64,000 nucleotides of DNA from the NCBI GenBank assembly GCA_964596525.1, contig CAZQUL010000001.1, positions 524,830-588,829 of the forward strand. The letters are read 5' to 3'. Made by a program: the position numbers and the translations under genes. Origin of the DNA: an uncultured Gammaproteobacteria bacterium. GTDB lineage: Bacteria > Patescibacteriota > Patescibacteriia > Magasanikbacterales > GWA2-37-8. The notes under the pieces are model-generated. The model was given only the letters and a program-made list of their open reading frames with translations, was not told the DNA's origin and searched no databases. Shown one piece after another: positions 3,410-49,974 of the stretch (the first letter of the stretch is position 1; each line of letters begins with the position of its first letter).

Positions 3410-3486
3410 AGCCGTATCTTCGCAAGTTTTGGTGGAAACGCTCGATTGCTCCTCGAGGCCGCCACCCCTTATTCCACGTGTTATTT

Positions 3487-3972: not shown

Positions 3973-4001
3973 CGCCTCTTCGCTTACTTAATCTTCTTCG
4001 T

Positions 4002-4445: not shown

Positions 4446-4470
4446 GTAGAACCATCCAATCATCTTAATT

Positions 4471-4686
4471 ATGCCACTTGAAAAAGCCAAAACCTGCCGC
4501 TACTGCATCAACAAAAAGCTGGTAGTGGACTACAAAGACATCGGCATGCTCGGTCGCTTCATTTCTTCGTACAAGAAGATCGCGCCGCGCCGTCGTACCG
4601 GGCTCTGCGCCAAACACCAGCGCCGCATTGCCCGCGCCATCAAACGCGCCCGCCAGAACGCGCTTTTGCCGTTCATGGCTTACTAA
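4471..4686 (+). CDS. rpsR: 30S ribosomal protein S18
   Basis: CRYC...[42 protein letters not shown] is the classic S18 signature. Confidence 0.9.
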
Positions 4687-4751
4687 CGTTTAGTATTTTA
4701 TTCATGTGGGACTCTGCTTTAGCAGGGGTTTGTACCACGTAGATTACATGT

Positions 4752-22813: not shown

Positions 22814-22999
22814 GCCTTTTTTATGACGAGCCCCCGACGGGGCTCTTTAGTTTTCGCCAGTGCAACCGTTCTTGACTCAAGCCTTGGCATCTTTTATAAT
22901 CCTTCGTTAGCCGTTTTTCGGTGTGATCGTGCGCGTCTCACGAAATGCGGTTTAACCTACTGCCGAGACCGTCAACAGCCCAAGCCAAAGAGGTGGATT

Positions 23000-35700: not shown

Positions 35701-37788
35701 GGTGGGGCCAAATTTAGCATCTGGCCGAATGATGATAAGACCCCGGCCGGTCAGCCGCAGTCATTTTACAAGACGAAAAATGAAAAACGCGGTCCTGGTG
35801 TTGCGGTTACCGGTAGATATCTTGGTAAAGAAAGAGAATGGGTCATGATGTACGGCAGTGCGGTAACCGATAACGCTCAGGATGGAACCTATGTCGATAA
35901 ATTAGGTAATGTCTGCTATCCTCATGCTGACTATGGTGACGTGGTAGGAAGCTGGAATTCAAATAGCGGTCAATGCCAAGATCTTAATGGCAATATCTTC
36001 CAAGGCCTTAATTCTCGTAAAGGTGGACTCGAAGTCGAAGATCGATTTACCTGTTCTAGTAACTGCCGATTGAAAGATGGCCAAGGTTTCAGCGCTCAAG
36101 ATGGGTCTGCCTTAACGATGAGTTCTGAAGGTATCTGGGATTATAATTTCACTGCCGATCAGATCTGCCGTTCGTACGGCCCTCGTTATAGTAGTACTGA
36201 TTGGCAAGGTAACTGGCATGCACTACGTGTTCGCTTCAATGCCCAAGACAAGTTTGCCGGTTACGATATGGCCTACTGCGACCAATCGCCGGATGGAGGT
36301 TCTGTAAAATACGAAGTCACCTTCATCCTTAAGCAGTGGTGTTCGGTCATTGCGGACGTCGGCTCTACCCCAACTCTCCCTGAAACCGATCCGGCTGCCT
36401 GGACCAACCGTTTGTGGGCCAACAATCCGCGCGGTTACTCGGTGGCGGTTGCTGCAAGTGTTGGTATGGTTGCGGGTGTTGATGCTGCTACTGTGACCAT
36501 GGTTAACCTGGGTTATACCTATGGCACCGATGTTAAACCTTTTGGCAGCTTGGGCATGAATAACTTCGGTAATGTCAAAAATACAGTCAACCTTTCGGCA
36601 TTCAATCCAATCATGACGAGCTGTAGCAATAGCGGTATCGAAAGCTGTGAACGCTCCAAAGGTCTTGTGCCGGATGGTGGCAAAACACCTGAATTCCAAG
36701 AAAGCGTAGCCGGTGCTCCATATTCCTGTCCGGATGGCACGTGTATCAGGAGCCTTGATGATGCCAATAAAACCGAAGAGCGCAGCAACGCTTCGCTCCT
36801 CACGCGCGAAATGGGCGCCCAACTGTTCTCCATGCTCTTCGCCCGTCCGCGCGCGATCTACCAGTTCGGTAATGGTTCGTACTTGCGCGTCGAAAACGCC
36901 CCGTCCAATATCTTCACCCGCGATTACACCGAAAACATTAACGTTAGTGCAACAGGTGTTCCCAAACCGCCGATAGTGCTCCCGGTTGGCGCCTGTGATA
37001 GCAGCGGTCATTGTGTGGAAGGCTTGGGTGGAACTGGTATCAGCGTGAATGATCGCGACGGGGGAGATGTGCGCATCTTCACCCCGACGGCCCGCGTGTT
37101 CGTCCGCTTCTTCGCCTTCGCGGATGCGAACCAAATGCCGCTACGCCAGCTCTCGGTAAACTGGGGCGATGGACGCGTCTATCCGCTTAAAGGTCTCTTC
37201 CGCAACTTCCGCGGTTACCGCCCGGCTACGTGTAATACCCAGCTTCGCCAATGCGAAATGGAAGTGATGGATGATCTCAGTTCATGCAGTACGGATGGGG
37301 AATGCGGCGGTCGCGGTCGCTGCGTCGTGCAGGCTCCTGGTTCTTCGGTCGGTAAATGCGTGGTTAAACGCACTGCAGGCGCTTGCGCCTCGGATGAAGA
37401 ATGTGACCAGACGTCCATGTGTACCGATGTCGCGAATAGTCCGCAGACGTTCGGTACCATCGCTGGCCAGACCTGTGACAGCAACTACGCACAGTTCGAA
37501 CATGTCTATCAGTGTACGCGCACTCCTGTTAGCCAAGGTGGCAACTTTGAACCGGATCCGGCCAAATGCGGCGATCCGCGCTCCTTCCCGACCGGCTGCT
37601 GTATCTTCGTGCCGAAAGTTCAGGTGAAAGATAACTGGGGCTGGTGCAATGGCCGCTGCGCGGGAGGCGTCGGTGGTGACGGATGTTACACTAAGGTTGG
37701 CGGTTTAGATGAATGTACTTCGAACCCGTCTGCCTGGACATCGTATGGAGGGCGCATCATCGTCGCTCCTCCCACGGTGCGCCGTTAA
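29740..37788 (+). CDS. Giant (2,682 aa) cysteine-rich secreted/cell-surface protein
   Basis: Single uninterrupted 8,049-nt ORF. The N-terminal hydrophobic segment is IKAAILVAIFGFSTLFGTLALTSAANAQ. Cys residues are very numerous and often paired (C-x2-4-C) along the whole length, with Gly/Thr/Asn-rich segments. A strong terminator follows. GC is about 50-55%. Confidence 0.8.
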   Translation: MSLFRVLTMPTPHVRTIKAAILVAIFGFSTLFGTLALTSAANAQLAVGVLADAPRTVDTVLSKVLQGLKVGVLNVVSGAVSYALQKIAYDSAVWIASGGKGQAPLVYTKGFSGYLSDVANDAVGHGIDQLTAATGYNLCKISDPNIDLKFRQALRLGIGITAPRAPGKPSCTLTEFAQNNLSGDAWRSRYDRVSKSIQNQFNEALTFDVSQSDLGIQLTALDALSAAMASAKENATKDRQEGDGIKSLDTPISGDKKVPAKSIGAELEGLTSKERTQQSVAQINTAIGTGEFQLLPGALSTFFLNTLAGTMLKNFREKGILPFGACVGGLGGEVCQSGSGTATSFEALTQVGGRRAAEALFSDFITARPAAVDQFNILGELSNCPDTPGTYNCRLDTGFAQALQEASNGTPLTIQDAITRGFLRGDWKLLPPSRIAENANKTCAQNAFCNSNVKALRQLRVVPLGFEVATELSDPDKPWTLNEVVAGFNDCNYNRDASGNVVGVTYDPVNKPFCHLIDPTWVLKAPITRCNALGYGSTLLNPDVPDRKEECADLATCVAYNKDGACVNYGYCTRERNTWKFDADKCDAQFRTCQTFTDSAGAQKSYVYRSLNTAFCAQNTVGCRAYSLTQDANGNWLNPNGPTSYGTQTGIFFNGTVSNSCSAGSAGCSAFRVAANADVSLYLRKAPSYLGCYDANPATPQTEWPSTAADLTRVRPQAACAQYAQACIADEVGCTYYSPATGDTSKKIPARFSSRDVCNAACVGYDAYREMPSSYTTGQDVAYIVPSSGQMCQPEAQGCTGFTNLGTTAAGLEKVDYFSYLRPCSLPDAQKQKNFSTYESTVSGFQLKTFTLISDQTGAPAYFYRTIDERAQFEATCNQATYKAGIASLDCREFNDEAGNVYYRLLSKTIPVSESCTPYRLSETALYPTALSETECTARKGSFANGQCNLCLMGGEFRNGSCFYFGLPGGVPSTAGESITCSQADNSCRAYKGNAGNNIRNIFVDTFENQGTATQWLGTGISTSPESVRTGGKSLTSLGTEIVRPFTMTPGQSYEIEFWAKGAPQSVEVSLQSFDGSVVRSFGSVSVGDTWRSFRLGSIEAPGSATNSARIVFKLASTAAFFVDNITLRETTEMVYVLKDTLRVDPVCDSNQTDNLPGEGLGCRAYRDTAGNTLNLTGFSYLCREGAIGCTALLDTQNSSPQSPGPHIYNLFVTGQGGTEATVTVAGQSARCQIPVGENGCYVTISGPTLDEVRQAAPATIVSSTVYVPATTIAAQPVYLVANQAATCNAVDLGCTYAGLQTPSPAGATYSTVLIKNDPSAYAQNLCQAQAVGCQAYNSATGPTYFKDPALTGNKVCSYRTGVLVNGIKTSGWFWKDVGVCSNDRTKACTQSTDCSSGATCTDIGNRPCYPSYQVDGTTYGLWSFGDRANYQDFVGECPVQQNGCSEFIDRADNNRAYYLIKNERLGPGTCDGKVSQKEGCALFDDTSNPNKFYVSRDTYAQSNSQQSRLVEPVLSSNSLPGDTNVIFKVTRDRECGEWLQCRSSHRVWDEKNARWKTVCDAVGRCNRAPETPEEDNISNCASWVEEDLAAPAAPLTPSQYVARDTSWTGQEFSGYSLLNQYPVEYLSQVNISRSESAPDWRLVRQIPCGDTNCAAGVSPNDTLCASSGTACGLRGVGICLNGFCVQNLDGTAKDIAKNAPTQICRAYPEKDSPFPRTPFIDRARRQFAAATLCDEIGSPSSDPKKVQACECDYTKIKYGDIYTKYFSYAKPHTTEEVIKGSPGVEPQGICLGGTQDGKACRTDNECFKTKANSSEPATDPYGNVITDGTCQKSKFTYKLLGWRGFCLEPDLSRTINGDPNSHPCLTWYPVDYLTGTQDINNQYVEAGYQPPGKTGGLGGIFYCAVGNAGGGAEYAASFQYPQSHKLVVRPRDTNPLVSDTADRSQGGNDQFVRNRRSATPEEAAFSRQDIERIDFELVSGDKEDPRGGAKFSIWPNDDKTPAGQPQSFYKTKNEKRGPGVAVTGRYLGKEREWVMMYGSAVTDNAQDGTYVDKLGNVCYPHADYGDVVGSWNSNSGQCQDLNGNIFQGLNSRKGGLEVEDRFTCSSNCRLKDGQGFSAQDGSALTMSSEGIWDYNFTADQICRSYGPRYSSTDWQGNWHALRVRFNAQDKFAGYDMAYCDQSPDGGSVKYEVTFILKQWCSVIADVGSTPTLPETDPAAWTNRLWANNPRGYSVAVAASVGMVAGVDAATVTMVNLGYTYGTDVKPFGSLGMNNFGNVKNTVNLSAFNPIMTSCSNSGIESCERSKGLVPDGGKTPEFQESVAGAPYSCPDGTCIRSLDDANKTEERSNASLLTREMGAQLFSMLFARPRAIYQFGNGSYLRVENAPSNIFTRDYTENINVSATGVPKPPIVLPVGACDSSGHCVEGLGGTGISVNDRDGGDVRIFTPTARVFVRFFAFADANQMPLRQLSVNWGDGRVYPLKGLFRNFRGYRPATCNTQLRQCEMEVMDDLSSCSTDGECGGRGRCVVQAPGSSVGKCVVKRTAGACASDEECDQTSMCTDVANSPQTFGTIAGQTCDSNYAQFEHVYQCTRTPVSQGGNFEPDPAKCGDPRSFPTGCCIFVPKVQVKDNWGWCNGRCAGGVGGDGCYTKVGGLDECTSNPSAWTSYGGRIIVAPPTVRR

Positions 37789-37838: not shown

Positions 37839-37937
37839 CTTAGTCGGTGTGGTTGTCAGTAAAAATTTTTTTAAAACGTAAAACCGCCGTCACAGGGTGA
37901 GCCATGACGGCGGATTTGTTAGGGGGCATGCCGTTGC

Positions 37938-38479
37938 TTACGGAACGATCGAGCATGTCCAGTCCGTGTAGTACTGGGGGTCCGGCCCAGGGCAGGTGAA
38001 CGACTTGATCCGCTTGAGCGGCAGAATCGGGCACTTGCCGAAAATGAACGCCCGCGATACGGTCGGGTCGTTCTTGGGCCGGCTGAAGTACTGCATCACA
38101 CACGGGTCAGCCGGATCACTCCGGAACTCGCCGTCGCTGAACGAAACGGTCGTGCCGGTGAGCTCCTTGTAGGAGCAGGTGTAGACCAGCTTCGAATCAA
38201 CCTGGCTCGCATCGCACTTCGGCGGTGGCGGAACCGCCTGGCACGAAGCCAGATCGGACTCGCACTGGAGAACCTTCTCCTGCATCTCGTCGAGCATCTT
38301 CTGCACGACGCTGCCACCGGACGGCTTCCCCGAGTTCGTGGACTGACCCGAGCAGATCGCCGAAACTTCAGCGAACTTGGCCTCGTACCAGCCAGAGTGG
38401 GGCGGGGGAGACCCGCAACCGGCCACAAGAGCAATCGCTCCCAGGCCAACCTTGAACAAGGCGTTGGACAGGCGCTTCA
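37938..38479 (-). CDS. Cys-rich lipoprotein, high GC
   Basis: AAAGGAGG RBS. MKRLSNALFKVGLGAIALVAGCGSPP gives a lipobox. About 8 Cys in the mature 160 aa. GC is about 65%. The track ORF extends to 38744, but the RBS and signal peptide support the shorter gene. Confidence 0.55.
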
Positions 38480-38868
38480 TGGTGCGCCTCCTTTCTTGTC
38501 GAGCCTGCGCTCGGCTAAGACTATACTCCAAGGCTAGACGATACCCTCGTCCTGGGGGCGGGTTATCACGTATTCTTCCCGCGCTTAGGAAACAACACTC
38601 GACACTTCGAGGGTTGGCGCCCAGCACCGGATTACAATTAAACAAAAACAATCTAGGGTTGCCAGATTGTCCGTTGGTTGTAACGAGCAGCCGTTGCAGC
38701 GCTTCGTTTACCAGTTCAGTTGTTAAGGCACTCTTCCATACCACGTTAGAAAGTGCAAGAAAATCTGTGTATAAGTTATTTTATAGTGTTCTTGTGAGGA
38801 TGTGCTTCTGCAGGGATAAAGCACTTAATGGGTAATTTAAGAAAGGATGTAACCATGGTTGTTTATTA

Positions 38869-38897
38869 TTGACAAATTCTCTGTTTTGTGATATAGT
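38869..38897 (+). promoter_or_regulatory. Sigma70 consensus-like promoter for the T4SS-like operon
   Basis: TTGACAaattctctgttttgtgaTATAGT with a 17-nt spacer, about 40 nt upstream of the first gene. Confidence 0.5.
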
Positions 38898-38936
38898 TTA
38901 TTGTTAACTAAACGCTCATTTTAGAGGAGAAAACAC

Positions 38937-39242
38937 ATGGGAAACGTCGATTGGTTCCGCGTGCTGGCGGTTGCCGGCATCTTCGCTGTCGCCTATTTCC
39001 TTGCCCTGCACCCCCACGTCCGCCAGTGGCGCGAGGGTGTGCTGGCAGCAAAAGCGGCGCGCAAGAGAGAGTTGAGGGAGTACTACGGCGCCCCGCCGCC
39101 CAAGCCGCCGGGTAATGATGATATCAGCGGTTCACTCATGCTGCTTCTGAGCAGCGCGCTCCTGTCGCTGATTCTTTTCCCTCTTGCTTGCTGCCTACTG
39201 GTGGCGATCTTTCTTCTCCAAGTGCTCCTGCCGCTCTTCTAG
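38937..39242 (+). CDS. Small 2-TM membrane protein, first gene of the T4SS-like locus
   Basis: GGAGAAAACAC-ATG gives an RBS. Two hydrophobic helices are present (VLAVAGIFAVAYFLAL and LMLLLSSALLSLILFPLACCLLVAIFLLQVLLPLF). A terminator-like hairpin follows at 39277-39310. Confidence 0.5.
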   Translation: MGNVDWFRVLAVAGIFAVAYFLALHPHVRQWREGVLAAKAARKRELREYYGAPPPKPPGNDDISGSLMLLLSSALLSLILFPLACCLLVAIFLLQVLLPLF

Positions 39243-39276
39243 ATCGGCCGAAGCCTTGGCGCCCCTACGCCTTGAA

Positions 39277-39310
39277 CGGCGGTGCTCTTGCACCGCCGGC
39301 CTTTTTTATT
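39277..39310 (+). terminator. Terminator-like hairpin (possible attenuator inside the operon)
   Basis: cggcggtgc tctt gcaccgccg followed by gccttttttatt. Confidence 0.5.
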
Positions 39311-39438
39311 TACAAACGTAGCGTCTTGAATGAAGGTAATATGTGGATAAGGAAAGATCTGGTTTGAAAATTGTTGCTCGGGGATAACTATGCTATACTA
39401 ACCTCACCAAATTATCTCTCGGTTCAAACCTATTCCGT

Positions 39439-42400
39439 ATGCTACAAACCCTGCGTGCGTGGGCCCAAAACCTTGTTACCAAAGCCTGGAATCATCGAAC
39501 GTGGTTAGCGATTGTGGGGGTAGCAAGTTTTTTTATCTTAGTTCTTATTTCATCGGCCGACCCCACGTGGGCGCAAACGACAGGTTCGGGGAGTACGGCG
39601 TCGGGCGGAGGCGGTTTTTACAGCGTTATAAATAGCACCGAAGAGCAGATAAAAGCTGGTGCATCAACAGCTAGCGGTATAGGTGCTGATATTGCCAATA
39701 GCTTGGGGAATGTGTTCGGACGTGCTATTGCCGCCATTCTTCTCATGATTGCGCGCTTATTTTTGGCGCTTACCACGTTCTTTATCAATGTCATCTTGGT
39801 GATCGCCGGGTATAATGGGTATCTCGAATCCACCGCCGTTAACCTGGGTTGGACCGTTATCCGCGACATCACCAACATGTTTTATATCGTCATTCTTTTG
39901 GTGATCGCGTTTGCCACTATTCTTGGTGTGGAAGGATATGAGTGGCGTCAATTACTGCCTAAGCTCGTCGGCTCGGCCATTCTCGTCAACTTTAGTCGCA
40001 CGATTTGTGGCTTTCTCATTGACGGTTCGCAAGTCATCATGATCACGTTCCTCAACGCCATGTCGGCAACCATCGGTGGAAACGTGATTAATGCGTTTAA
40101 GCTTCCCTCGTTTGAAAAATTCCATTCGGCCGTAGATCCCAACTCATTTGCGTCGCCCGGCATCCTTGTTTCCTCTATCGTCGCCCTTATTTTTTCCGCA
40201 CTGGTCATGGCGGTCGTCGGCGCGTATGTTTTTATTTTACTTGCCCGTCTTATCCGTCTGTGGGTACTCATCGTATTATCTCCGCTCGTCTTCGTGCTCC
40301 GTGTTCTTCCTTCTACGGCCGGGTTTGTTTCTGAATGGTGGACCCAGTTAACCGACGATTTGGTAACCGGTCCGGTGCTTGTCTTTTTCTTGTGGCTATC
40401 GCTTATCGTTGTTGGTAGTGGACAAATAAACCAGGAGGTCATTAAAGGTTCCCGTTTGGCCGATAAAAGTCCGATCGAACAGGCATTTGGCGCGCAAGAG
40501 CAGAAGTATGGTCCGACCGATATTTTGGGTGCCAATAATCTGGCCAACTTCTTTATTGCCATCGGCATGTTGTTGGCTGGCGCTAAAGCAGCGAGTAAAA
40601 TCGGTGGCTCGAGCGGCAACCTGATCAATTCCGCCATGAATACTGGCTGGCAAATCGCCAAGATCGCAACCGGTGCGTACATCGGTTCACGTATCGCGCA
40701 GTCTGGTAAGAGCGCAGCAGGGAGCGTGTTCAGTACCGTCATGAGCCCGGTAACCAAGCTCGGCAAAAAAGCTGGTTTGCGCTTGGGTGCCTGGAAAGAG
40801 GATAAAATTGATACCTGGCGTGATAAAAAGGCTAAAGAATGGAGTCAGAAGGGGCAGGCATGGGGCGATCGATTTGGTATTGCCGGAAGGGTGGCTGGCG
40901 CCCTGTTGCCGGGTTTAGCTTCAAGCGTTATCCAGTCCAAAGATCGCGGCGAAGCAATTATGGGTAAGTATGAAGAATACCGCAAACAGGCTTCCGAACG
41001 TCATAAAACGCTCCTCGGTACGAGTGTTGAGGGAATTTCCAAAAAGGTTATTCATGGCGCCCAACAATTAAAGAAAATTCAAGAAGAAGATGCGGCGAGC
41101 GGTGCGTTGAAGAGGGCAGAAATCGAGCGTACCTACGAAGAAGCTTCCGGTAAGATCGGTGGCTTCCTTAAGCCGCATGAAGATCGGGTTGCAGAAGCTA
41201 AAAAAGAACTGGACAAAGCCGAAAAGACTGGCAATTCACTGCTTATTGAACCGGCCCGTGCGCAGCTCAAGTCCGCCGAAGCTGCTCTTAAGAAAGAGAT
41301 GGCTAATCTGAAAGAGGCTGGTTATGATTCCAAATACATTCGCTACTACGAACTGGACAAAGCAGCCACTAAGGCAGATGTAAAGAGCCAGGAAGCGCTT
41401 GAGATTATTCAGGCGGCTTCGGCCCAGCAGAAGGCTGAAGAGCGTGATGCTTTGCGTGTCGCACGCGGTGAGCGTCCGGTGTATGTTCAGGAATTCTTTA
41501 GTTCGCAAGAAAAGAAGCGTACGGAGCTCCTCGGGAATTATTCCGACGATGAACTGGTCGCCGAAATCGGCAAATTGTCCGACAGCTTGCGCGATGTCAA
41601 CACTCGCCTGGCGAACGTTAAAGATCAAGACGAGCGCGATTCGCTGCAAGATAAAATTAAGGGGCAAACCATTGAAATGGCCCGTTTGCAGTCCGAAGCC
41701 GCGCGTCGCGGTGGTGCCCAGGCTCAGAGTGCGCGCAAGGCTGCCGCTGCCACTTTTACCGATGATATCAGCCTTGATGATGCGGTGGGGCAACAGGCTA
41801 TGTACTTGAGCGGTGTCTTGGGTAAAAGCATCCAGGCCACTGAAGCAAGCGTTAAAGCTGCTTTTGACGAACTTAAAGAGCGCTTTGGTACGGCATATGA
41901 GTTTAACGCCTACATGAAGAATTTAGTAGACCGCGAGCGCAATGCCATGTCGAGCGGTGCGCTTGGCTTGGGTGCGACTATTCGTCCGGTATACGACGAC
42001 GCTGCTAAGCAGATGACCTACAAGCCGGTTAGTATGCGCGACAGGACTGTTCGTTCAGGTTCAACCGATGCGCAGTGGATGCGTGATAATCGTACGTTTG
42101 CCGCTGGTAACTGGAAATTGGCCAAAACAGTCGATTTTGAAGGTTCACTTGACCGTCGCGGTGGCAAGTACGTGATTTCTTCGCCGACTGCTGTTCGGGC
42201 GATCGCTGATAAGTTCGGCAGCCTTAAAGGCGAACAGATCAATAAGATTCAGCGCCACCATGTTGAGCGTTTGAAAGAAGCGATTAAAAACATGAACGAC
42301 GCCGAAGTGCGGAACTTCGTTCAGGCTATGGCCGCGCGTTTCCCGCAAGACCCCAAGAAATTCGCGCAGAATTTCGGTACGTTGCTCAGTAGAATTGATA

Positions 42401-42612
42401 ATGGCAGGATTAGAGATCTGTTTAAAGATCCTGCGCTGGGCGCTGCTGGTACCGGGTACCGGACGATTGCCACTAAGGCGCGAACCGGCAAGTCGTTTGA
42501 TGAAGTTATGGCTGATGTTGAATCAACCTATGCGGCTACTCGTGCAACAACCACTACGCGCCGCACCCGCACTACGGGTGGTCCGAGCTCCCGCCCTGCG
42601 TCGTCACCTTAG
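39439..42612 (+). CDS. VirB6/TrbL-like polytopic membrane protein with a long charged coiled-coil C-terminal extension
   Basis: 1,057-aa product. A signal-peptide-like N-terminus and Gly/Ser linker are followed by at least 6 TM helices with a TrbL/VirB6-like pattern (ILLMIARLFLALTTFFINVILVIAGY..., ...FYIVILLVIAFATILGVEGYEW..., ...GSAILVNFSRTICGFLIDGSQVIMITFLNAMS..., ...LIFSALVMAVVGAYVFILLARLIRLWVLIVLSPLVFVL...). The remaining ~650 aa are K/E/A-rich and predicted coiled coil. Confidence 0.6.
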   Translation: MLQTLRAWAQNLVTKAWNHRTWLAIVGVASFFILVLISSADPTWAQTTGSGSTASGGGGFYSVINSTEEQIKAGASTASGIGADIANSLGNVFGRAIAAILLMIARLFLALTTFFINVILVIAGYNGYLESTAVNLGWTVIRDITNMFYIVILLVIAFATILGVEGYEWRQLLPKLVGSAILVNFSRTICGFLIDGSQVIMITFLNAMSATIGGNVINAFKLPSFEKFHSAVDPNSFASPGILVSSIVALIFSALVMAVVGAYVFILLARLIRLWVLIVLSPLVFVLRVLPSTAGFVSEWWTQLTDDLVTGPVLVFFLWLSLIVVGSGQINQEVIKGSRLADKSPIEQAFGAQEQKYGPTDILGANNLANFFIAIGMLLAGAKAASKIGGSSGNLINSAMNTGWQIAKIATGAYIGSRIAQSGKSAAGSVFSTVMSPVTKLGKKAGLRLGAWKEDKIDTWRDKKAKEWSQKGQAWGDRFGIAGRVAGALLPGLASSVIQSKDRGEAIMGKYEEYRKQASERHKTLLGTSVEGISKKVIHGAQQLKKIQEEDAASGALKRAEIERTYEEASGKIGGFLKPHEDRVAEAKKELDKAEKTGNSLLIEPARAQLKSAEAALKKEMANLKEAGYDSKYIRYYELDKAATKADVKSQEALEIIQAASAQQKAEERDALRVARGERPVYVQEFFSSQEKKRTELLGNYSDDELVAEIGKLSDSLRDVNTRLANVKDQDERDSLQDKIKGQTIEMARLQSEAARRGGAQAQSARKAAAATFTDDISLDDAVGQQAMYLSGVLGKSIQATEASVKAAFDELKERFGTAYEFNAYMKNLVDRERNAMSSGALGLGATIRPVYDDAAKQMTYKPVSMRDRTVRSGSTDAQWMRDNRTFAAGNWKLAKTVDFEGSLDRRGGKYVISSPTAVRAIADKFGSLKGEQINKIQRHHVERLKEAIKNMNDAEVRNFVQAMAARFPQDPKKFAQNFGTLLSRIDNGRIRDLFKDPALGAAGTGYRTIATKARTGKSFDEVMADVESTYAATRATTTTRRTRTTGGPSSRPASSP

Positions 42613-42629
42613 TCCCTGTCTCTTAGCGT

Positions 42630-43676
42630 ATGATTCTTGAATCTTTACAACAGCAAAAAAAGCTCACGCCCGAGGAGCTCTCTAAGGCCGAAGAAGAGTA
42701 CCGAGATCTTGATCCCAAAGGTGAAGCTGAACTTTGGGACGGGCTCCACTACTATTTCTTGCGCGCCTCAGTTACTGCTGACCGGGTCTGGTGGCTATCG
42801 TATTTTCGGTGGTACACCGAACTGACGTGGCGTTTTTTGCCACAGCGCTCCGACGAAGTGGTTTCGGCTGTTGCCTATGCGCGCCAGCTTGTTATGGCAG
42901 TGCTTCTTGATTTCGACCCGGTGACAGAGCTTATCATGTATATCAATGAAAAACCGTGGGACGAAGAGGGGGTGGCGCGTTTTTACACCCGGGTTCGCGA
43001 CGGTGTGATGAAAAGTTCGGCGATTGTTGGTGTGAGTAAGGGGCGTGAGATAACCTTGGCTGATCTTTTCCGCGAACTTTCCCTTATCAAGCAAGCAAAT
43101 GACACGCTGCGTATGGCGGAGTTCATCACTCGTTTACGCGATGTGCTCTTTCCCAAAACCGATACGCTTCTTGATGAATACGTGCCGATGGAAGCGGAGC
43201 GCGGCGCTAACGTGCTGACTGACGTAATGCTCTTCTTTTTAGAGGTCGTGCCGGAGTCGTTCTACGCTGTTATGCAGACATCTTTGCATCCCGAATACTA
43301 CGAAACAGGAGCTGCCGAAGGAGAGTCTGCTTCTCCTGCTGAAGAGGCAGAGGCCGACCTTTCTTCTGAACCGGCTGAAGAATCGATTGAAGGTGCGGAA
43401 TCGGTAGCGCCTGCGCAGAGTGAGGAGGCCGGAATTGATGAGTCGGCTGCTACACCAAACGTGTCCGAAGAAACCCCGCGCGCACCGAGCCGACCTACTA
43501 ACACTGAGTTGCGGGCCATGGTAGAGGCGCTTATTCCTGCCGATCTCCCGCCCGAAGAACAAGCTCCACGGATCGTGGAAATGCTCTCCGACTTGGCTGA
43601 CCGTTACCATGATGAAACGATCCGCGACGTATATTACTTTGATGAAACGACCGGGCGCTTTGAATGGCTCCCATAA
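42630..43676 (+). CDS. Hypothetical acidic protein of the T4SS-like operon
   Basis: 348-aa product, E/A/S-rich acidic centre, no TM. Gap of 18 nt from the upstream gene. Confidence 0.45.
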   Translation: MILESLQQQKKLTPEELSKAEEEYRDLDPKGEAELWDGLHYYFLRASVTADRVWWLSYFRWYTELTWRFLPQRSDEVVSAVAYARQLVMAVLLDFDPVTELIMYINEKPWDEEGVARFYTRVRDGVMKSSAIVGVSKGREITLADLFRELSLIKQANDTLRMAEFITRLRDVLFPKTDTLLDEYVPMEAERGANVLTDVMLFFLEVVPESFYAVMQTSLHPEYYETGAAEGESASPAEEAEADLSSEPAEESIEGAESVAPAQSEEAGIDESAATPNVSEETPRAPSRPTNTELRAMVEALIPADLPPEEQAPRIVEMLSDLADRYHDETIRDVYYFDETTGRFEWLP

Positions 43677-43687
43677 CCTGTTTGCGT

Positions 43688-44554
43688 ATGCCTGCCTTCA
43701 TTACCGTAAAAAAACCCGACGGTACCACCGAGAAAATTTCGATGGAGGAGTTTTTGGCACGACAGAAAAAAAGCGCCCCTCCGGTGCAGTCTGTTGCTTC
43801 GGCACCTGCCCCAACACCGTCTGCTCCACGCGGTGATAGAACTATACTGGCTCAGCCATCGCAACCACTATCTGTTTCCCTCGAAGATGAGATGGTACAG
43901 CCGGAAACCGCACCACCTTTTCCGCCTATGCCGGCACCAGTCCTTTCTTCTCAACCAGAGGAGATGCATACCAGTGAGATTGAAAAGGCGCGTGAGGCAA
44001 TAATGCGCATGTCGGATACGAGTGTGGCTACCGCTACCCCGTTTAATGCATTTAAACACGATGCCGATGTCTCGATGGGGCCACCGGCTACTCCTCCGGC
44101 GCCGCCCGCCGCGGTCCCGCCACTCAAACCATCGCTCTTGGCTGAAGAACCGTCTGAAGAAGAAGCTCTTTCCCCGCCGCCACCGCTTACAAATTTTTCA
44201 TCGCGCCGCCCGATTATGAACGATGTGGTGGCGGCGCCGCGTTCCATCGGTCCGATTGAGGAAATCCAGGCCATAACACTCGTCGATTTCCGACGCTTGT
44301 CGCCTGTTGAGCGTGATGCGGCGATGCGGCTTGAGCAGAAATTCAATAATCTCAAAGCCGAATCGATTCTTTTGTTCTGGCAAGCCCGTGCTGCCTGGAA
44401 AGAAAGCGAGTTGTATCACGTCCTCACGACACCGTTTCTTTCGGCGCTTTTGCGGCGTGAACCGTTGAATCGCTTTTTAGGTAAAGAGAAGGGGATAACC
44501 ATGGCTGAGGTCATAGCGCTCCTTGATATGGAACGCCGTCTTATCCACGATTAA
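43688..44554 (+). CDS. Hypothetical Pro/Ala-rich protein of the T4SS-like operon
   Basis: The likely start is MPAFITVKKPDG. The PAPTPSAP, PPFPPMPAP and PPATPPAPPAAVPP tracts suggest an extended linker or periplasm-spanning protein. Confidence 0.4.
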   Translation: MPAFITVKKPDGTTEKISMEEFLARQKKSAPPVQSVASAPAPTPSAPRGDRTILAQPSQPLSVSLEDEMVQPETAPPFPPMPAPVLSSQPEEMHTSEIEKAREAIMRMSDTSVATATPFNAFKHDADVSMGPPATPPAPPAAVPPLKPSLLAEEPSEEEALSPPPPLTNFSSRRPIMNDVVAAPRSIGPIEEIQAITLVDFRRLSPVERDAAMRLEQKFNNLKAESILLFWQARAAWKESELYHVLTTPFLSALLRREPLNRFLGKEKGITMAEVIALLDMERRLIHD

Positions 44555-44557
44555 TCT

Positions 44558-45028
44558 ATGCGACAGTTCGTCGTCCCGCAATTTATCGACGTAGAAGATA
44601 AGATTCTGGGTCCGATTACGGTGCGGCAGTTCCTTATCCTGCTCGTCACCGGCCTGATCTTATTCATCATGTTCAAGCTTTTTGATTTTGCCTTGTTCGT
44701 GGTGAGCGGATTTTTCATAGGCGGTTTTGCACTGGTCGTGGCGTTTGTGAAAATTAACGGCCAGGCGTTTCACTACGTACTCCTTAATGTGGGGCAGACG
44801 ATGCGCCAACCGGCACTGCGCATCTGGGACAAGCGGTATACCAAGCAAGAATTAGCCGATTTCCGCAAACCCTTCAAACCCGAAGAAGTGGAAGTGGTGC
44901 CGGTGAAAGCGGCATCTCCCCGCCATATCCGCGACCTGTCGCTTCTCGTAAACACTGGCGGCTACTATAACCCGAAAAGTTCCATGAAAGACGAAGTGCC
45001 CGACCGTCCGCGAGTGAAAATCACCTAA
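44558..45028 (+). CDS. VirB3-like small 2-TM protein (PrgI/TcpE-type), immediately upstream of VirB4
   Basis: 156-aa product. ITVRQFLILLVTGLILFIMFKLFDFALFVVSGFFIGGFALVVAF forms a hairpin TM pair. It sits just before the VirB4 gene, as VirB3 homologs do in Gram-positive-type T4SS. Confidence 0.45.
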   Translation: MRQFVVPQFIDVEDKILGPITVRQFLILLVTGLILFIMFKLFDFALFVVSGFFIGGFALVVAFVKINGQAFHYVLLNVGQTMRQPALRIWDKRYTKQELADFRKPFKPEEVEVVPVKAASPRHIRDLSLLVNTGGYYNPKSSMKDEVPDRPRVKIT

Positions 45029-45042
45029 CTTCCCCGATCATT

Positions 45043-45732
45043 ATGAAAAACAAAAAGGCCGATCAAAAACGCAAACGCATTCCCGCGGCCCAACACTATT
45101 TACCGATCGCGGAAATCAAGAACGATACGGTTATCATGAAAGACGGCACTCTCCGCGCGGTGCTTCTGGTTTCGAGTATCAATTTTGCCCTCAAAAACGA
45201 AGACGAACAGAACGCCATCGTTTCTTCGTATGTCGGTTTCCTCAATTCGCTCGAACACCCGCTTAACATCGTTATTCAATCGCGCAAACTCAACATTAAG
45301 CCATACCTAGAAAAACTCGCCGAGCAAGAACGCCAGCAGACCAACGAACTTCTGCGCACGCAAATCGCTGACTACCGTTCGTACATCTTGGAACTCATCA
45401 GTTTGGGCGAGATTATGAGTAAGCAGTTTTACGTCATCGTGCCGTATGATCCGGCATCCAACAAATCGAAGAGTTTCTGGACGCGTTTGGGTGAAGTGGT
45501 AAATCCGGTGCAGGGCGTGCGCCTTAAGGGTGAGCGATTCCTTAAGCGCAAATACGAGCTTGACATGCGGGTGCGCCAGGTGGAAGCCGGTCTTTCGAGC
45601 ATGGGTCTTACCATCGCACAACTTGATACGCAAGCACTCATCGAACTTTATTATTCCACATATAATCCGGATATTGCCTTGGTGCAGAAGCTGCCCAATA
45701 TCGAAGAACTCCGGGTTGAGAAGGAAGGCTAA
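45043..45732 (+). CDS. VirB4/TrbE/CagE-family ATPase, N-terminal domain (split from the ATPase domain by a frameshift)
   Basis: IPAAQHYLPIAEIKNDTVIMKDGTLRAVLLVSSINFALKNEDEQNAIVSSYVGFLNSLEHPLNIVIQSRKLNI matches the CagE_TrbE_VirB N-terminal domain pattern. It ends at a TAA at 45730, and the next ORF continues the same protein family in another frame. Confidence 0.6.
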   Translation: MKNKKADQKRKRIPAAQHYLPIAEIKNDTVIMKDGTLRAVLLVSSINFALKNEDEQNAIVSSYVGFLNSLEHPLNIVIQSRKLNIKPYLEKLAEQERQQTNELLRTQIADYRSYILELISLGEIMSKQFYVIVPYDPASNKSKSFWTRLGEVVNPVQGVRLKGERFLKRKYELDMRVRQVEAGLSSMGLTIAQLDTQALIELYYSTYNPDIALVQKLPNIEELRVEKEG

Positions 45733-45743
45733 TCCCGCTTTGT

Positions 45744-47609
45744 ATGGCTTTCAAACCCACATCATCACAACGCATCACCCCCAAGAACGTACTCATGCAG
45801 GAGCAGAAACGGGTGGAGGAAAAGACTTCTGAGGAGCTTCTGACGCTCGAGGAAGAAAAAGTTTACCGCGAAGGTGTCGTGAGCATCCGTGATCTCATCG
45901 CTCCGGCTGCGTTCAAAGTGGATTCCAATTACATCCAGCTCGGTACGGTGTTTTGCCGCACCATTTTTATTACCTCGTATCCGCGCTACATCACGATCGG
46001 CTGGAGTTCGCCGATCATCAATCTGTCGGTGACGATGGATATCTCGATGTTTTTCTATCCGGTCAAATCCGCGATTATTCTGAAGCAGCTCAAAAATAAA
46101 GTGGGTGCTTTACAGGCTCAACTCTCTGCAGACCGTGAAAAAGGTGCGCCGCGTGACCCGCTGCGCGAAACCGCGCTGCGCGATATCGAAGGTTTGCGTG
46201 ACGATCTGACGCAGGGTACCGAGCATTTTTTCCAGTTCGCGTTTTACGTCACGTTTTATGCCGAGAGCAAAGAGCGCCTCGATCAGTTGAGCGAAGATAT
46301 CGAAGGTATCTTTGGCGCCAAACTCATCACGAGCCGCAAAGTACTTTACCAAAGCGAGCAAGGCTTCGATTCTACATTGCCTTTAGCCAATGACGAGCTG
46401 ATGATTTCTTTCAATATGAACTCGTCGCCAATTGCGGCTTCATTCCCGTTCATTTCGGCTGAGCTCACCTCCGATGATGGCATTTTATACGGTATCAACC
46501 GTCATAATAACAGCCTTATCCTCTTCGACCGTTTTTCGCTCCAAAACGCCAACATGGTGGTGTTCGCAACGTCCGGTGCGGGTAAAAGTTATGCTATCAA
46601 GCTCGAGATTTTGCGTAGTCTCATGATGGGCGTTGATGTCATCATTATCGACCCGGAAATGGAATATAAGCATCTGTCGGATGCGGTGGGCGGTACGTAC
46701 ATTAATATCTCTCTGTCGTCTGAGAGCAAGATCAATCCCTTCGACTTGCCGCGCCCGTATGGTCAGGATATGACGGTTGAAGATATTATTCGAAGCGCTG
46801 TCATTACCACCAAAGGCCTTATCCGTATCATGTGCAACGGCCTTACGACCGAGCAGGACTCGGTGATGGATCGCGCGCTCATCGAAACGTACGCTAAAAA
46901 AGATATTACGCCGGGAACGGATTTGGCCACCGCCAAACCGCCGATCATGCAGGATCTGCAAGAGGTTTTGGAAGGCATGGAAGGGTCCGAAGAGCTTGTC
47001 CTTAAACTCAAGAAATATACCGAAGGTACGTTTGCCGGACTCTTCAATTCGCCGACCAATGTGGATATGCGCAACCAACTCGTGATCTTCAGTGTGCGCG
47101 ATTTGGAAGACGAACTGCGCCCGCTCGCCATTTACGCCATCATCAACTACATCTGGAACGTGGTGAGGAGTGAACGCAAGAAACGCATTCTGGTTATCGA
47201 TGAAGCCTGGTGGATGATGCAGCATGAAGACAGTGCGCGGTTTATTCACGCGCTCATCAAACGCTGCCGCAAGTACTATCTCGGCGTGACGACCATCACC
47301 CAAGACGTTAATGACTTTTTGCGCTCGGCATACGGACAATCTATCGTTACCAACTCGGCACTCCAGCTCCTCTTGCGCCAATCGCCCTCGGCCATTGATC
47401 TTATCCAGAAGGTCTTCCTTCTTACCGATAGCGAAAAGTACCTGCTTCTCCAGAGCGGCGTGGGTGAGGGGATTTTCTTCGCCGGTTCCAAGCATGCGGC
47501 TATTCGCGTAGTCGCTTCGCCGACCGAAGACCAAATCGTCACTACCAACCCGCAGCAGCTTATCGAAATTGAGAAAAATAAGAAGAAGTTTGAACAAGCT
47601 TTTAGCTAA
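45744..47609 (+). CDS. VirB4/TrbE/CagE-family ATPase, central and C-terminal ATPase domains
   Basis: FATSGAGKSYAIKLEI is the Walker A. RILVIDEAWWMM is the Walker B (DEAW). YYLGVTTITQD is a motif-C-like block. The N-terminal segment ...YIQLGTVFCRTIFITSYPRYITIGW... corresponds to the VirB4 linker region. Confidence 0.8.
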   Translation: MAFKPTSSQRITPKNVLMQEQKRVEEKTSEELLTLEEEKVYREGVVSIRDLIAPAAFKVDSNYIQLGTVFCRTIFITSYPRYITIGWSSPIINLSVTMDISMFFYPVKSAIILKQLKNKVGALQAQLSADREKGAPRDPLRETALRDIEGLRDDLTQGTEHFFQFAFYVTFYAESKERLDQLSEDIEGIFGAKLITSRKVLYQSEQGFDSTLPLANDELMISFNMNSSPIAASFPFISAELTSDDGILYGINRHNNSLILFDRFSLQNANMVVFATSGAGKSYAIKLEILRSLMMGVDVIIIDPEMEYKHLSDAVGGTYINISLSSESKINPFDLPRPYGQDMTVEDIIRSAVITTKGLIRIMCNGLTTEQDSVMDRALIETYAKKDITPGTDLATAKPPIMQDLQEVLEGMEGSEELVLKLKKYTEGTFAGLFNSPTNVDMRNQLVIFSVRDLEDELRPLAIYAIINYIWNVVRSERKKRILVIDEAWWMMQHEDSARFIHALIKRCRKYYLGVTTITQDVNDFLRSAYGQSIVTNSALQLLLRQSPSAIDLIQKVFLLTDSEKYLLLQSGVGEGIFFAGSKHAAIRVVASPTEDQIVTTNPQQLIEIEKNKKKFEQAFS

Positions 47610-47635
47610 AGAATCTACTTTTTTACGCTACCTGT

Positions 47636-48253
47636 ATGTCCATACGCTTACGACTGGCCATTATCCTCATCGGTATCGTTTTGGTAATCGCGGGGATTGT
47701 GTACGTAGTAATCATCAACACTAAAAAACGCGGATTGCCGACCGACACTCCGAATACCCCGCAAACCGGGCAGGTGATCGACTCGAGCACCTTTACCACC
47801 AACTCGCTTGCGGCGATCACCGGTTCGGGTGCAAACCCGGTACCCACCACCACGCAACCCATCACCAACCCGATTGAGCTAGAAAAACTGGGCGTGGAAC
47901 GGCTCGCTTCGGTGTTTGCCGCACGCTACGGCTCATTTTCGTCAGATAACAGCTATCAGAATGTCCGTGAGGTGGAACAGCTCGCCACCCGCGCGCTATG
48001 GGCTAAAATCCGCCCCCCGAGCTCTCCGCGACCGGCCGCTACGTTCAGCGGCGTTACGACCGAGGTGCTCATGACCAAACTCACTACGTGGGCCGATGCT
48101 GCCGCAACGGTGGAAGTAACCGCCTCGCGCACCGAAACAACGCTCGCGACCGGCGTACCGTCCACTACCGTCTATCAGCAAAAAGCCACGATCAACTTAG
48201 TGAAGCAGGGCACGAATTGGCTCGTCGATAGCTTCACCTGGCTCAAGCCGTAA
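47636..48253 (+). CDS. Bitopic membrane protein (N-terminal TM plus ~170-aa extracytoplasmic domain); possible VirB8-like component
   Basis: TM LAIILIGIVLVIAGIVYVVII. The topology and size fit VirB8-like proteins, but no motif confirms this. Confidence 0.35.
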   Translation: MSIRLRLAIILIGIVLVIAGIVYVVIINTKKRGLPTDTPNTPQTGQVIDSSTFTTNSLAAITGSGANPVPTTTQPITNPIELEKLGVERLASVFAARYGSFSSDNSYQNVREVEQLATRALWAKIRPPSSPRPAATFSGVTTEVLMTKLTTWADAAATVEVTASRTETTLATGVPSTTVYQQKATINLVKQGTNWLVDSFTWLKP

Positions 48254-48260
48254 GAACTCT

Positions 48261-48986
48261 ATGGAGGGGGTCTTACAGCGAACCTGGGAGGGCATCAAAA
48301 ATGCCTTTTTCCCTATCACGTGCGTAGCTTGTGGCTCATATGGAGCCTGGTGTTGTGCTACGTGCCAAGGCACAGCCGAGCGTATGCGCCACCAGGGTTG
48401 CCCGGTGTGCACGCTTCCTACGCCGCGCGGCGCGCTGTGCAATGATTGTTTGCCGGTATCGCACCTCGATGGTGTAACTGCGTTTTATCAGTACGAAGAA
48501 CGTAAGGTTGTTGCCGAACTCATTAAAGCTCTCAAGTACAGCCGTGCCACCGAAACCATTGCTGCCCTGCGTGGTCTTCTCAACACGGCGGAAAAAGATT
48601 TTGTGCCGCACGTCGCGGTACATGAATTCATTGTCATCCCCGTACCTCTTCACCCGCGCCGTTTTAATGAGCGCGGTTTTAACCAGGCCGAACTCCTTAG
48701 CCGACTTCTCCTTGAAACGCATGCCGATACCTTGCCTGCGGCAACCGTCGTTGTCGGCGATTTGGCGCGCGTGCGCTACACCAATCCGCAGGCCGAGCAG
48801 AGCGGCACAGTGCGCCGTACCAACGTAAAAGATGCCTTTGCATGGCTGGGAGCCGGCAAAGCACCCTCCCACGTACTGCTTGTTGACGACGTATTTACGA
48901 CCGGCAGTACCATGCAGGAGTGTGCCCGGGTGCTTAAGCATCACGGGGCAGAGTGGGTGTGGGGTGTGGCTGTAGCGCGCGGTTAG
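48261..48986 (+). CDS. comFC: ComF-family protein (ComFC; phosphoribosyltransferase-type competence protein)
   Basis: N-terminal double Cys pairs (CVACGSYGAWCCATC...CPVCTL...CNDC) and the C-terminal PRTase motif VLLVDDVFTTGSTMQE are the ComFC/GntX hallmarks. Confidence 0.8.
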   Translation: MEGVLQRTWEGIKNAFFPITCVACGSYGAWCCATCQGTAERMRHQGCPVCTLPTPRGALCNDCLPVSHLDGVTAFYQYEERKVVAELIKALKYSRATETIAALRGLLNTAEKDFVPHVAVHEFIVIPVPLHPRRFNERGFNQAELLSRLLLETHADTLPAATVVVGDLARVRYTNPQAEQSGTVRRTNVKDAFAWLGAGKAPSHVLLVDDVFTTGSTMQECARVLKHHGAEWVWGVAVARG

Positions 48987-49093
48987 CACCGGATTTTCCT
49001 TATAACCGCTTAGTTGGGCGTATTGACTGCCCGATCGGCCTTTTGCTATAATCGAGCAGAAGTTTGTTTTTTGTTAGATAAAACGTACTCACT

Positions 49094-49182
49094 GGAGACG
49101 TGGCCGAGTTGGTCTAAGGCGCCTCACTGCTAACGAGGTAGGGCCTCAAAAACCCTCGCGAGTTCGAATCTCGCCGTCTCCG
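49094..49182 (+). tRNA. tRNA-Ser (anticodon GCU), type II with a long variable arm
   Basis: GGAGACGtgGCCGAGTTGGTCTAAGGCgcctcaCTGCTAAcgaggtAGGGCCTCAAAAACCCTcGCGAGTTCGAATCTCGCCGTCTCCg. The acceptor stem is GGAGACG/CGTCTCC. The D-loop GAGTTGG-TCTAA is typical for Ser. The anticodon loop is CU-GCU-AA. There is a long extra arm, and the CCA is not encoded. Confidence 0.85.
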
Positions 49183-49296
49183 CAAAAAAATTCCTTTACT
49201 AAGGAATTTTTTTAATTTATTCGTAAGCCAAACTCCTTGCCTTTTTCTTCCCCCTACGCTAGCTTACCAACAGCTACCCAACCAACGAGGTGCCCG

Positions 49297-49974
49297 ATGC
49301 CTGAAACAAACATTTCTCCTGCCATACCTCCCTTCATCAATTTGATCCTTTCGGTTAATGACTGGGGGCAAAAAGCCACGTCTTCGCCTACCGAGATCAG
49401 AATTTTTTACGACCTAGTGCGAGCGGCCGGGTTTGAGGGGGTCTTGGTCATAGGCAAACTCCGCGGCAATTATCACGAAGGAGAGGATGGGAGTGTAACC
49501 GACACTTGTGCTGTCAACGTACTTTCTCCCTTCAAGCTGGTAGATCAAGATGGGCATAACGATATTTTCGCTACCGGCTGGCTCGACTGCGCGCTGCGTT
49601 ACGTGCTGATGTGCGCTCAGGATAGAAAAACCCAGAGCGAAACGGCGGCGCTCTTACAAGTGCAGGTTGAACGCAGCCGACCGCTCCTGCCGATCAGACT
49701 TAATTCTGCCGGCGACACTCTGATTGAGCGTCCGCCGGAGCGACTTCTATCAAATCTCGGGTACTTCGTGGACCATGTGCGAGATGCCCATTCAGCTGCT
49801 TCGCATGTTGGGTACCACCAGTACTGCAACGGTGAAATGCATCGTCGCCGCGCAACCACGACCGATGACGTGCTGGTCTGCCGTGGATGTTATTTGCGCG
49901 TTATGCTGCCCAAGCACGTGCAAACCTACGGCGAGTTGCGCGAGGCGCTCTGTATTCGCTGTGCGCATTCGTAG
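49297..49974 (+). CDS. Hypothetical protein with a C-terminal Cys/His zinc-ribbon-like cluster
   Basis: GAGGTG RBS before MPETNIS. The C-terminus is HQYCNGEMH...CRGCYLRV...CIRCAHS. Confidence 0.45.
   Translation: MPETNISPAIPPFINLILSVNDWGQKATSSPTEIRIFYDLVRAAGFEGVLVIGKLRGNYHEGEDGSVTDTCAVNVLSPFKLVDQDGHNDIFATGWLDCALRYVLMCAQDRKTQSETAALLQVQVERSRPLLPIRLNSAGDTLIERPPERLLSNLGYFVDHVRDAHSAASHVGYHQYCNGEMHRRRATTTDDVLVCRGCYLRVMLPKHVQTYGELREALCIRCAHS

Follow-up and report, generated by a model that had tools for sequence, protein, structure and literature searches.

Introduction

The closest described relatives of the locus reported here are the type IV secretion systems (T4SSs) of Patescibacteria (candidate phyla radiation, CPR), which a 2025 review treats as established newcomers (PMC12857230). 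Quiñonero-Coronel et al. (2025, PMC12102498) surveyed 2,407 Patescibacteria assemblies with a VirB4 of a distinct clade, which branches inside the monoderm class MPF_FATA. TrsD is the most frequent companion of this VirB4, PrgI/VirB3 and VirB6 lie near virB4, VirB2-like pilin genes near virB4 are common and not universal in the phylum, and VirB8 homologues are found almost only in the class ABY1, in which the T4SS is co-localised with comF, recG and radA. Relaxases are rare at these loci, KsgA and origin-proximal genes lie nearby, and the authors suggest an import function, with DNA or other macromolecules taken up from hosts. Their dataset places Magasanikbacteria in ABY1, including the genome of one of the loci compared below (L008). 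In Southlakia epibionticum, transposon sequencing found the T4SS genes to be essential for epibiotic growth (Wang et al. 2023, PMC10633639). Here we analyse a stretch of 64,000 nucleotides (nt), referred to as the window, from contig CAZQUL010000001.1 (positions 524,830 to 588,829; assembly GCA_964596525.1). It carries the chromosomal, non-conjugative T4SS of nearly all Patescibacteria in its Magasanikbacteria/ABY1 form, together with a gene for ComFC.

As in the Patescibacteria clade, the locus has a separate TrsD gene, PrgI/VirB3, VirB6, a VirB8 homologue, comF and a nearby KsgA gene, and it is chromosomal and carries no relaxase. It differs from the S. epibionticum cluster SEML1_0006-0019, which has an array of VirB2-like pilins and a VirB1-type hydrolase, neither of which was found in this window. 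The system is already known. An earlier note on this DNA, made from the sequence without database searches, had interpreted it correctly, and that interpretation is a rediscovery: the DNA-uptake or host-interaction apparatus it suggested is a hypothesis already present in the literature (PMC10633639; PMC12102498).

Results

Eight genes form a tight operon of conserved order

The earlier note described nine tightly packed plus-strand genes, g1 to g9, preceded by a consensus promoter and followed by a tRNA-Ser. All nine open reading frames (ORFs), the promoter-like site and the tRNA gene were found where the note had placed them (Table 1). The proposed nine-gene operon stood in part. Eight genes, g2 to g9 (39439-48986), form one tight operon, with successive gaps of 17, -13, 3, 14, 11, 26 and 7 nt, the negative value being the overlap of g4 with g3. 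The first gene, g1, lies outside it. The gap between g1 and g2 is 196 nt and contains a strong terminator-like hairpin followed by a 140-nt spacer, and no g1 homologue was present in 82 related loci, nor was an equivalent small gene with two transmembrane (TM) segments found at this position in the relatives. As g1 has its own promoter, a strong Shine-Dalgarno (SD) motif (GAGGAG) and a terminator-like hairpin, and is absent from relatives, the promoter at 38869 is probably not that of the operon and probably serves g1 alone. Promoter-like sites are not enriched in the region (11, against 9.1 +/- 3.1 in shuffled sequences). The product of g1 had no Pfam or NCBIfam match, pilin families included; given also its absence from relatives and its own promoter, SD motif and terminator, we rejected it both as a VirB2-like pilin and as an operon member. 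The conserved unit starts at 39439.

Table 1. Positions of the genes, signals and neighbouring features of the T4SS locus in the window (aa, amino acids)
Feature	Position	Strand	Description
Giant secreted Cys-rich protein	29740-37788	+	2682-aa ORF; 2674 aa from first ATG, codon 9
Sigma-70-like promoter	38869-38897	+	TTGACA-17-TATAGT, TG extension, 11/12 matches
g1	38937-39242	+	101 aa, 2 TM
Terminator-like hairpin 3' of g1	39277-39298	+	9 bp, 8 G-C, T-run
g2	39439-42612	+	1057 aa, extended VirB6/TrbL-like polytopic membrane protein
g3	42630-43676	+	348 aa, acidic, net charge -38, function unknown
g4	43664-44554	+	296 aa, 13.5% Pro, function unknown
g5	44558-45028	+	156 aa, PrgI family, TM hairpin
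g6	45043-45732	+	229 aa, TrsD-like, free-standing VirB4 N-terminal domain
g7	45744-47609	+	621 aa, VirB4-type ATPase
g8	47636-48253	+	205 aa, one TM, predicted bitopic VirB8-like
g9	48261-48986	+	241 aa, ComFC/ComF family
Promoter-like site upstream of tRNA-Ser	49023-49052	+	downstream boundary
tRNA-Ser(gct)	49094-49183	+	downstream boundary

The gene neighbourhood in related metagenome-assembled genomes (MAGs) was then compared. In a scan of species-representative genomes, 484 loci encode a relative. The best 80, with 73-84% ATPase identity and mostly from Magasanikbacteria MAGs, were fetched with their flanks and combined with two metagenome contigs to give a comparison set of 82 loci. Homologues were present for g2 in 57, g3 in 35, g4 in 72, g5 in 76, g6 in 80, g7 in 82, g8 in 74 and g9 in 74 of these loci, many of the missing ones being due to flanks that end early. 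Across the set the order g2-g9 is unchanged, a synteny far beyond chance. The flanking genes vary among loci while the operon order stays; it is the module that is conserved, and the chromosomal surroundings are not. The sole locus that also carries RF1 and KsgA (L074) showed identities of 76% for the ATPase, 67% for RF1 and 44% for KsgA, values that, as a single comparison of sequences, would fit a core gene under strong constraint.

Dozens of the MAG records carrying the operon are titled 'uncultured Gammaproteobacteria bacterium' (L003-L006, L009-L013 and others; CAY…/CAZ…). Their VirB4 proteins are 74-84% identical to those of Magasanikbacteria, and the record titles appear wrong.

The motor is a VirB4 split into two genes

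The product of g7 matched Pfam P-loop_TraG (E = 2.9e-28), as well as AAA_10 and DUF87, and scored 355.3 bits against the NCBIfam model conju_CD1110 (curated cut-off 325), with an alignment that spans positions 172-730 of the 752 in the model. The gene encodes the remainder of the VirB4 N-terminal region together with the P-loop domain. Its Walker A (ATSGAGKS) and Walker B (LVIDEAW) residues are invariant in alignment A1. At E <= 1e-10 there are at least 8000 homologues. The best 120 of them share 80-100% identity and, with few exceptions, have a length of about 622 aa, those with a taxon name being assigned to Patescibacteria or Candidatus Magasanikbacteria; identical proteins are encoded on an NCBI contig of 1.34 Mb. 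A search for the exact g7 sequence gave no match, the entries on record (P0001 and P0002) using later starts that give 604 and 598 aa. The model of the archaeal ATPase CedB was matched weakly and partially, with 50.8 bits against a cut-off of 700.

The preceding gene supplies what g7 lacks. In NCBIfam, g6 matched positions 90-233 of 894 of VirB4_plasma, a Mycoplasma VirB4 model (E = 4e-11), TrsD (NF041427, E = 3.6e-7), positions 6-138 of VirB4_CagE and positions 2-96 of CD1110, and its orthologues carry a precomputed Pfam match to PF26593, TraC-like. Since g6 covers N-terminal model positions that are absent from g7, the two genes together represent one VirB4. In 80 of the 82 loci g6 is a separate ORF of about 228 aa, next to an ATPase ORF of about 622 aa. 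A frameshift or pseudogene was considered as the origin of the split and rejected, as the two-ORF layout is constant in 80 loci and fits the known TrsD arrangement. Sequence similarity places this VirB4 in the Patescibacteria group, which is related to MPF_FATA.

Directly upstream, g5 matched Pfam PrgI (PF12666) with E = 1.1e-6 and 29.5 bits, above the gathering cut-off of 27. Two TM segments, at residues 25-41 and 48-64, form a hairpin, and the homologues in 76 loci have a median identity of 59%. Both the VirB3-like hairpin protein and the VirB4 made up of an N-terminal domain and an ATPase, as read by the earlier note, were thus borne out by family models.

g2 is an extended VirB6 with a long helical tail

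Evidence on g2 came from its homologues and from a predicted structure. Two homologues, P0167 and P0172 (E = 2e-40 and 7e-39), pass the Pfam TrbL model with 30.5 and 30.4 bits against a cut-off of 25.9, and 7 of 46 orthologues give a weak TrbL match. The hydropathy profile has 7-8 hydrophobic segments. An orthologue profile of g2 gave no meaningful match among PDB sequences, nor did that of g8, which made predicted structures necessary for both proteins. In the AlphaFold2 model of g2, the membrane core (residues about 80-400) is predicted with a local confidence (pLDDT) of 80-97. Searching the PDB with this model by Foldseek placed TrwI/VirB6 chains of R388 at ranks 1-4, 6, 7 and 14; the top four had a probability of 1.0 and target-normalised TM-scores of 0.35-0.52, with modest E-values of 8e-3 to 4e-2. 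These matches suggest that the core of g2 adopts a VirB6 fold, in agreement with the VirB6/TrbL-like protein with a long tail proposed earlier.

The tail, of about 640 aa, is hydrophilic and predicted to be all-helical, with a longest helix of 59 aa and parts at pLDDT 86-94. Its net positive charge weakly favours a position on the cytoplasmic side. The orthologues span 910-1883 aa, so that a long tail, differing in length from protein to protein, characterises the family. The earlier note regarded this tail as having no obvious counterpart in characterised systems, which was overstated: extended VirB6 proteins, with at least five hydrophobic helices and a large C-proximal hydrophilic domain, are a known category (Alvarez-Martinez and Christie 2009, cited in PMC12857230). 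g2 shares with this category the several hydrophobic helices and the big C-proximal hydrophilic part, and differs from it in that its tail is all-helical, is highly variable in length among close relatives and has no detected similarity to known domains.

g8 resembles VirB8 and g9 belongs to the ComF family

In the predicted model of g8, a TM helix at the N-terminus is connected by a disordered linker to an NTF2-like domain made of helices followed by a four-stranded sheet. It was built from 6 sequences only. Comparison with the VirB8 NTF2 fold, which the earlier note had proposed for this product, was favourable: TcpC came second in Foldseek with this moderate-confidence model. Weak matches to Pfam VirB8 (PF04335) were obtained for 3 of 46 orthologues, the best with E = 0.0019. 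When the orthologue profile was aligned by hhalign with 24 transfer proteins of pCF10 and pCW3, PrgL alone gave a signal, at 15% probability. We conclude that g8 is, as predicted from its model, a bitopic VirB8-like protein whose C-terminal NTF2-like domain would resemble VirB8, TcpC or PrgL.

The last gene of the operon, g9, follows g8 after 7 nt. Its product matched Pfam Pribosyltran (32 bits, cut-off 26.3) and came just under the cut-off for DZR_2 (26.1 against 27 bits). Over its full length it also matched the NCBIfam models TIGR00201 comF (E = 1e-24, 87.5 bits) and NF008616 GntX (E = 1e-27, 97 bits), in both cases under the cut-off (233.55 and 304, respectively). The translation contains a motif of the phosphoribosyl pyrophosphate (PRPP) type, VLLVDDVFTTGST, and paired CxxC motifs. 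g9 is therefore identified as a divergent member of the ComF/GntX family, with a phosphoribosyltransferase (PRTase)-like domain and a double zinc ribbon, which agrees with its earlier naming as ComFC. Of the 74 loci that have g9, 72 carry it immediately behind the g8 homologue and in the same orientation.

g3 and g4 are conserved proteins specific to the family

Between VirB6 and PrgI lie the two proteins that the earlier note had called acidic or Pro-rich and without obvious counterparts, a description that fits their composition (Table 1) and their lack of database matches. g3 has a folded region at its N-terminus and a conserved motif at its C-terminus, with an acidic linker between them; 35 related loci have a homologue at this place in the operon, with an identity of about 26%. 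It gave no significant match to Pfam, NCBIfam, PDB sequences, pCF10 or pCW3. In g4, which is present in 72 related loci, a C-terminal domain of about 115 aa is conserved; a phmmer search at E <= 1e-3 returned 858 representatives of 50% clusters, all of them over C-terminal residues of about 178-293. No counterpart of g4 was found in Pfam, NCBIfam, the PDB, pCF10 or pCW3. For both proteins the orthologue alignments gave no meaningful match to PDB sequence profiles, and no convincing TM segment or signal peptide was seen.

Comparison with conjugation and DNA-uptake systems

The locus was compared with the MPF_FATA systems of pCF10 (Prg/Pcf), pCW3 (Tcp), CTn2 (CD1110) and pGO1/pSK41 (Trs). It shares with them a minimal set of the VirB1/3/4/6/8 type lacking VirB7/9/10. 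The likeness extends to single subunits: the ATPase passes the curated model of CTn2 CD1110, the PrgI family is common to MPF_FATA systems, the split motor corresponds to TrsD plus TrsE of pGO1, and the VirB8-like NTF2 protein has its parallels in PrgL of pCF10 and TcpC of pCW3. TcpH of pCW3 (832 aa) has a long hydrophilic C-terminal region, as does the VirB6-like g2. Unlike these systems, the locus has no relaxase, type IV coupling protein (T4CP; PcfC/TcpA), hydrolase (PrgK/TcpG), adhesin (PrgB) or backbone of a plasmid or integrative conjugative element (ICE), and the cluster is chromosomal and apparently vertically inherited. It further differs from pCF10 and pCW3 in that g3 and g4 have no counterpart there and in that the VirB6 profile resembles Pfam TrbL and R388 TrwI and not PrgH or TcpH; aligned by hhalign with the single PrgH and TcpH sequences, it gave a probability below 1%.

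The ComB system of Helicobacter pylori and the archaeal Ced system resemble the locus in combining a VirB4-type ATPase and a VirB6-type membrane protein without a relaxase. ComB also has a link to ComFC, which is functional in H. pylori and genetic here. However, ComB belongs to a diderm and includes VirB7/9/10, the match to the CedB model is weak (see above), and uptake has been demonstrated for no Patescibacteria T4SS. In S. epibionticum, competence depends on a type IV pilus and ComEC (PMC12857230; PMC10633639).

Several details of the locus may go beyond the published account. The text of the survey (PMC12102498) makes no mention of a coiled-coil region. In the sections consulted, no description was found of the variable helical tail of VirB6, of the families of g3 and g4, of the giant upstream protein, of a ComFC gene that almost invariably closes the operon in this clade, or of the lack of pilin arrays and hydrolases seen in the window. 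These details may still be new, as refinements of a known system and not as a new kind.

Genomic context

The window was scanned for protein families in ORFs of 140 aa or more, among them every ORF above about 290 aa, and in one ORF of 125 aa. Among these there was no match to a family of relaxases, T4CPs, integrases, VirB9/10 or VirB1-type hydrolases. The earlier note had stated that the window lacks VirB7/9/10 and a coupling protein, as well as a relaxase, VirD4 and an integrase, and this holds for the scanned ORFs; nor did they contain the nearby relaxase or T4CP that the note itself had named as pointing to an ordinary integrated conjugative element. No VirB2-like pilin gene was found in the window, where the small multi-TM ORFs are a YidC fragment, g1 and PrgI only. 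Repeats of the tRNA-Ser of at least 14 nt do not occur elsewhere in the window, so there is no att-like repeat.

The neighbours of the operon in the window are housekeeping genes, namely those for YidC, S6, SSB, L1, UvrA, FtsW, UvrB, RF1 and KsgA. The C-terminal YidC fragment, S6, SSB, L1 and KsgA (18-395, 3478-5429, 28135-28974) share the 64 kb with the T4SS, an echo of the frequent proximity of Patescibacteria T4SSs to origin-proximal housekeeping genes reported in the survey (PMC12102498).

Other neighbouring genes

Upstream of the operon lies a giant ORF (Table 1) whose product has a signal peptide ending SAANA|Q, contains 4.2% Cys, and is rich in G, A, T and S. Neither Pfam nor the PDB sequences gave a match to it. 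In 27 related loci, a conserved counterpart of its C-terminal part immediately precedes the operon. It is possible, from adjacency alone, that this protein is a surface partner of the T4SS.

Between the giant ORF and the T4SS operon (37884-39298), strong SD motifs precede two non-conserved genes, whereas 34 of the 36 gene starts checked in the window have no SD motif or a partial match of at most 4 nt. One of the two genes is g1; the other encodes a 180-aa lipoprotein on the minus strand (38480 down to 37938; SD AGGAGG, lipobox LVAGC). Both are followed by a terminator-like hairpin. The stretch with the lipoprotein gene and g1 could be a recently acquired insert.

Four further ORFs had no Pfam match and were not found in related loci. 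Two adjacent ones, at 22823-24157 and 24369-25502, encode proteins of 444 and 377 aa that resemble each other at the C-terminus on visual inspection (…YVHDP…/…YIHNP…) and may be paralogues. The others are a 413-aa ORF on the minus strand at 26765-28006, with a lipobox-like 'LMACG' near the N-terminus, and a Cys-rich 245-aa ORF on the plus strand at 49237-49974, which has a TTG start and comes right after tRNA-Ser.

Discussion

What the operon encodes is very probably the cytoplasmic-membrane core of a T4SS of monoderm type and MPF_FATA origin, which serves a host-dependent lifestyle and not conjugation. The encoded set is an extended VirB6, PrgI/VirB3, a split VirB4, a predicted bitopic VirB8-like protein, two family-specific cytoplasmic proteins and ComFC. 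Going by what is known of the protein families, VirB3 (PrgI) would tether a VirB4 hexamer of TrsD and the ATPase to the membrane, VirB6 would form the translocation path, VirB8 would scaffold the complex across the wall, and ATP hydrolysis by VirB4 would drive assembly and/or passage of the substrate. Context and literature suggest that such a machine would move macromolecules between the ultrasmall cell and its host. As to the direction and the cargo, we tentatively prefer an inward transfer of nucleic acid, which would be handed to ComFC at the cytoplasmic side.

Several observations weigh against this reading as a whole or in part. On the side of the subunits, g2 itself had no match to Pfam TrbL (PF04610) at E <= 1, g8 itself had none to Pfam VirB8 (PF04335), and the confidence of the g8 model is moderate (pLDDT 59). 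T4CP homologues of Patescibacteria often lie far from virB4 (PMC12102498), and a T4CP, a relaxase, pilins or VirB1 may be encoded in this genome at a distance from the window. On the side of function, the adjacency of comF could be mere co-transcription. In addition, comEC, comF and dprA of S. epibionticum are dispensable, whereas its T4SS is essential (PMC10633639; PMC12857230). As the T4SS of that organism is not Com-dependent, the proposed handover to ComFC is weakened.

A first rival explanation is a dedicated nucleic-acid import machine, similar to ComB or Ced, which would take up DNA or RNA from the host or the medium, with ComFC receiving the single strand for recombination or salvage. 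We regard this as a possibility well short of probable, with protein export to the host about equally likely and the remainder falling to other or mixed roles. Import is consistent with ComFC closing the operon, close behind g8 and adjacent to it in nearly all loci, with the lack of a relaxase or T4CP in the window, and with the published proximity of comF, recG and radA to the ABY1 T4SS and the import of DNA or other macromolecules proposed on that occasion (PMC12102498). Moreover, a 2026 preprint (10.64898/2026.06.21.733656) reports host RNA as the food of a cultivated bacterium from the Minisyncoccota/Patescibacteriota lineage and describes tubular structures that are possibly T4SS pili. 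The dispensable com genes of S. epibionticum stand against it, as do the weak and partial CedB match and the lack of ComEC and DprA in the window.

In the second explanation, which we hold to be just as tentative, the system exports effectors or other proteins to or onto the host, possibly g3, g4 or the giant protein, and thereby builds the epibiotic interface. Wang et al. suggest that the Saccharibacterial T4SS, which lacks coupling and relaxase proteins, 'may instead export proteins' (PMC10633639), and some T4SSs without a T4CP, such as Ptl and Brucella VirB, do export proteins (PMC12857230; PMC12102498). g3 and g4 are rich in disorder and have no TM segments, and a giant secreted protein adjoins the operon in 27 loci. 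However, no effector signal or chaperone was recognised, and the giant protein has a Sec-type signal peptide of its own, so it needs no T4SS. g3 and g4 are conserved like structural subunits and translationally coupled within the operon, and for this reason they fit better as subunits than as cargo.

A more elaborate version of nucleic-acid import would have the ABY1 T4SS hard-wired to ComFC, with the VirB6 tail and g3/g4 handling the substrate in place of the missing coupling protein and the giant protein in place of pilins in host contact; we think this rather unlikely.

A remnant or active ICE inserted next to tRNA-Ser is very unlikely and largely refuted already: VirB4 best matches the CD1110 family of the CTn2-type conjugative elements of Clostridioides difficile, a tRNA gene lies immediately downstream and the survey traces the gene set to conjugation machinery of monoderms (PMC12102498), but the 64 kb hold no relaxase, T4CP, integrase or excisionase and no att-like repeat of tRNA-Ser, the GC content of the operon is unremarkable relative to its flanks, the module recurs in varying chromosomal surroundings across 484 species-level genomes of the clade, and the ATPase, at 73-89% identity, is better conserved than RF1 in the sole comparable pair. 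Together with the housekeeping context, this supports the earlier note in its view that the locus is not a conjugative element.

Much of bacterial diversity lies in the Patescibacteria, which cannot do without host cells, and the T4SS is one of a small number of machines with a demonstrated essential role in this way of life. The window described here is a clean and complete example of the ABY1 arrangement, in which each core subunit is assigned, and it represents no new kind of system. For the question of whether these cells import nucleic acids from their hosts, it offers defined targets: the VirB6 tail, g3 and g4 (one of them a family of at least 858 clusters), ComFC at the end of the operon and the giant protein.

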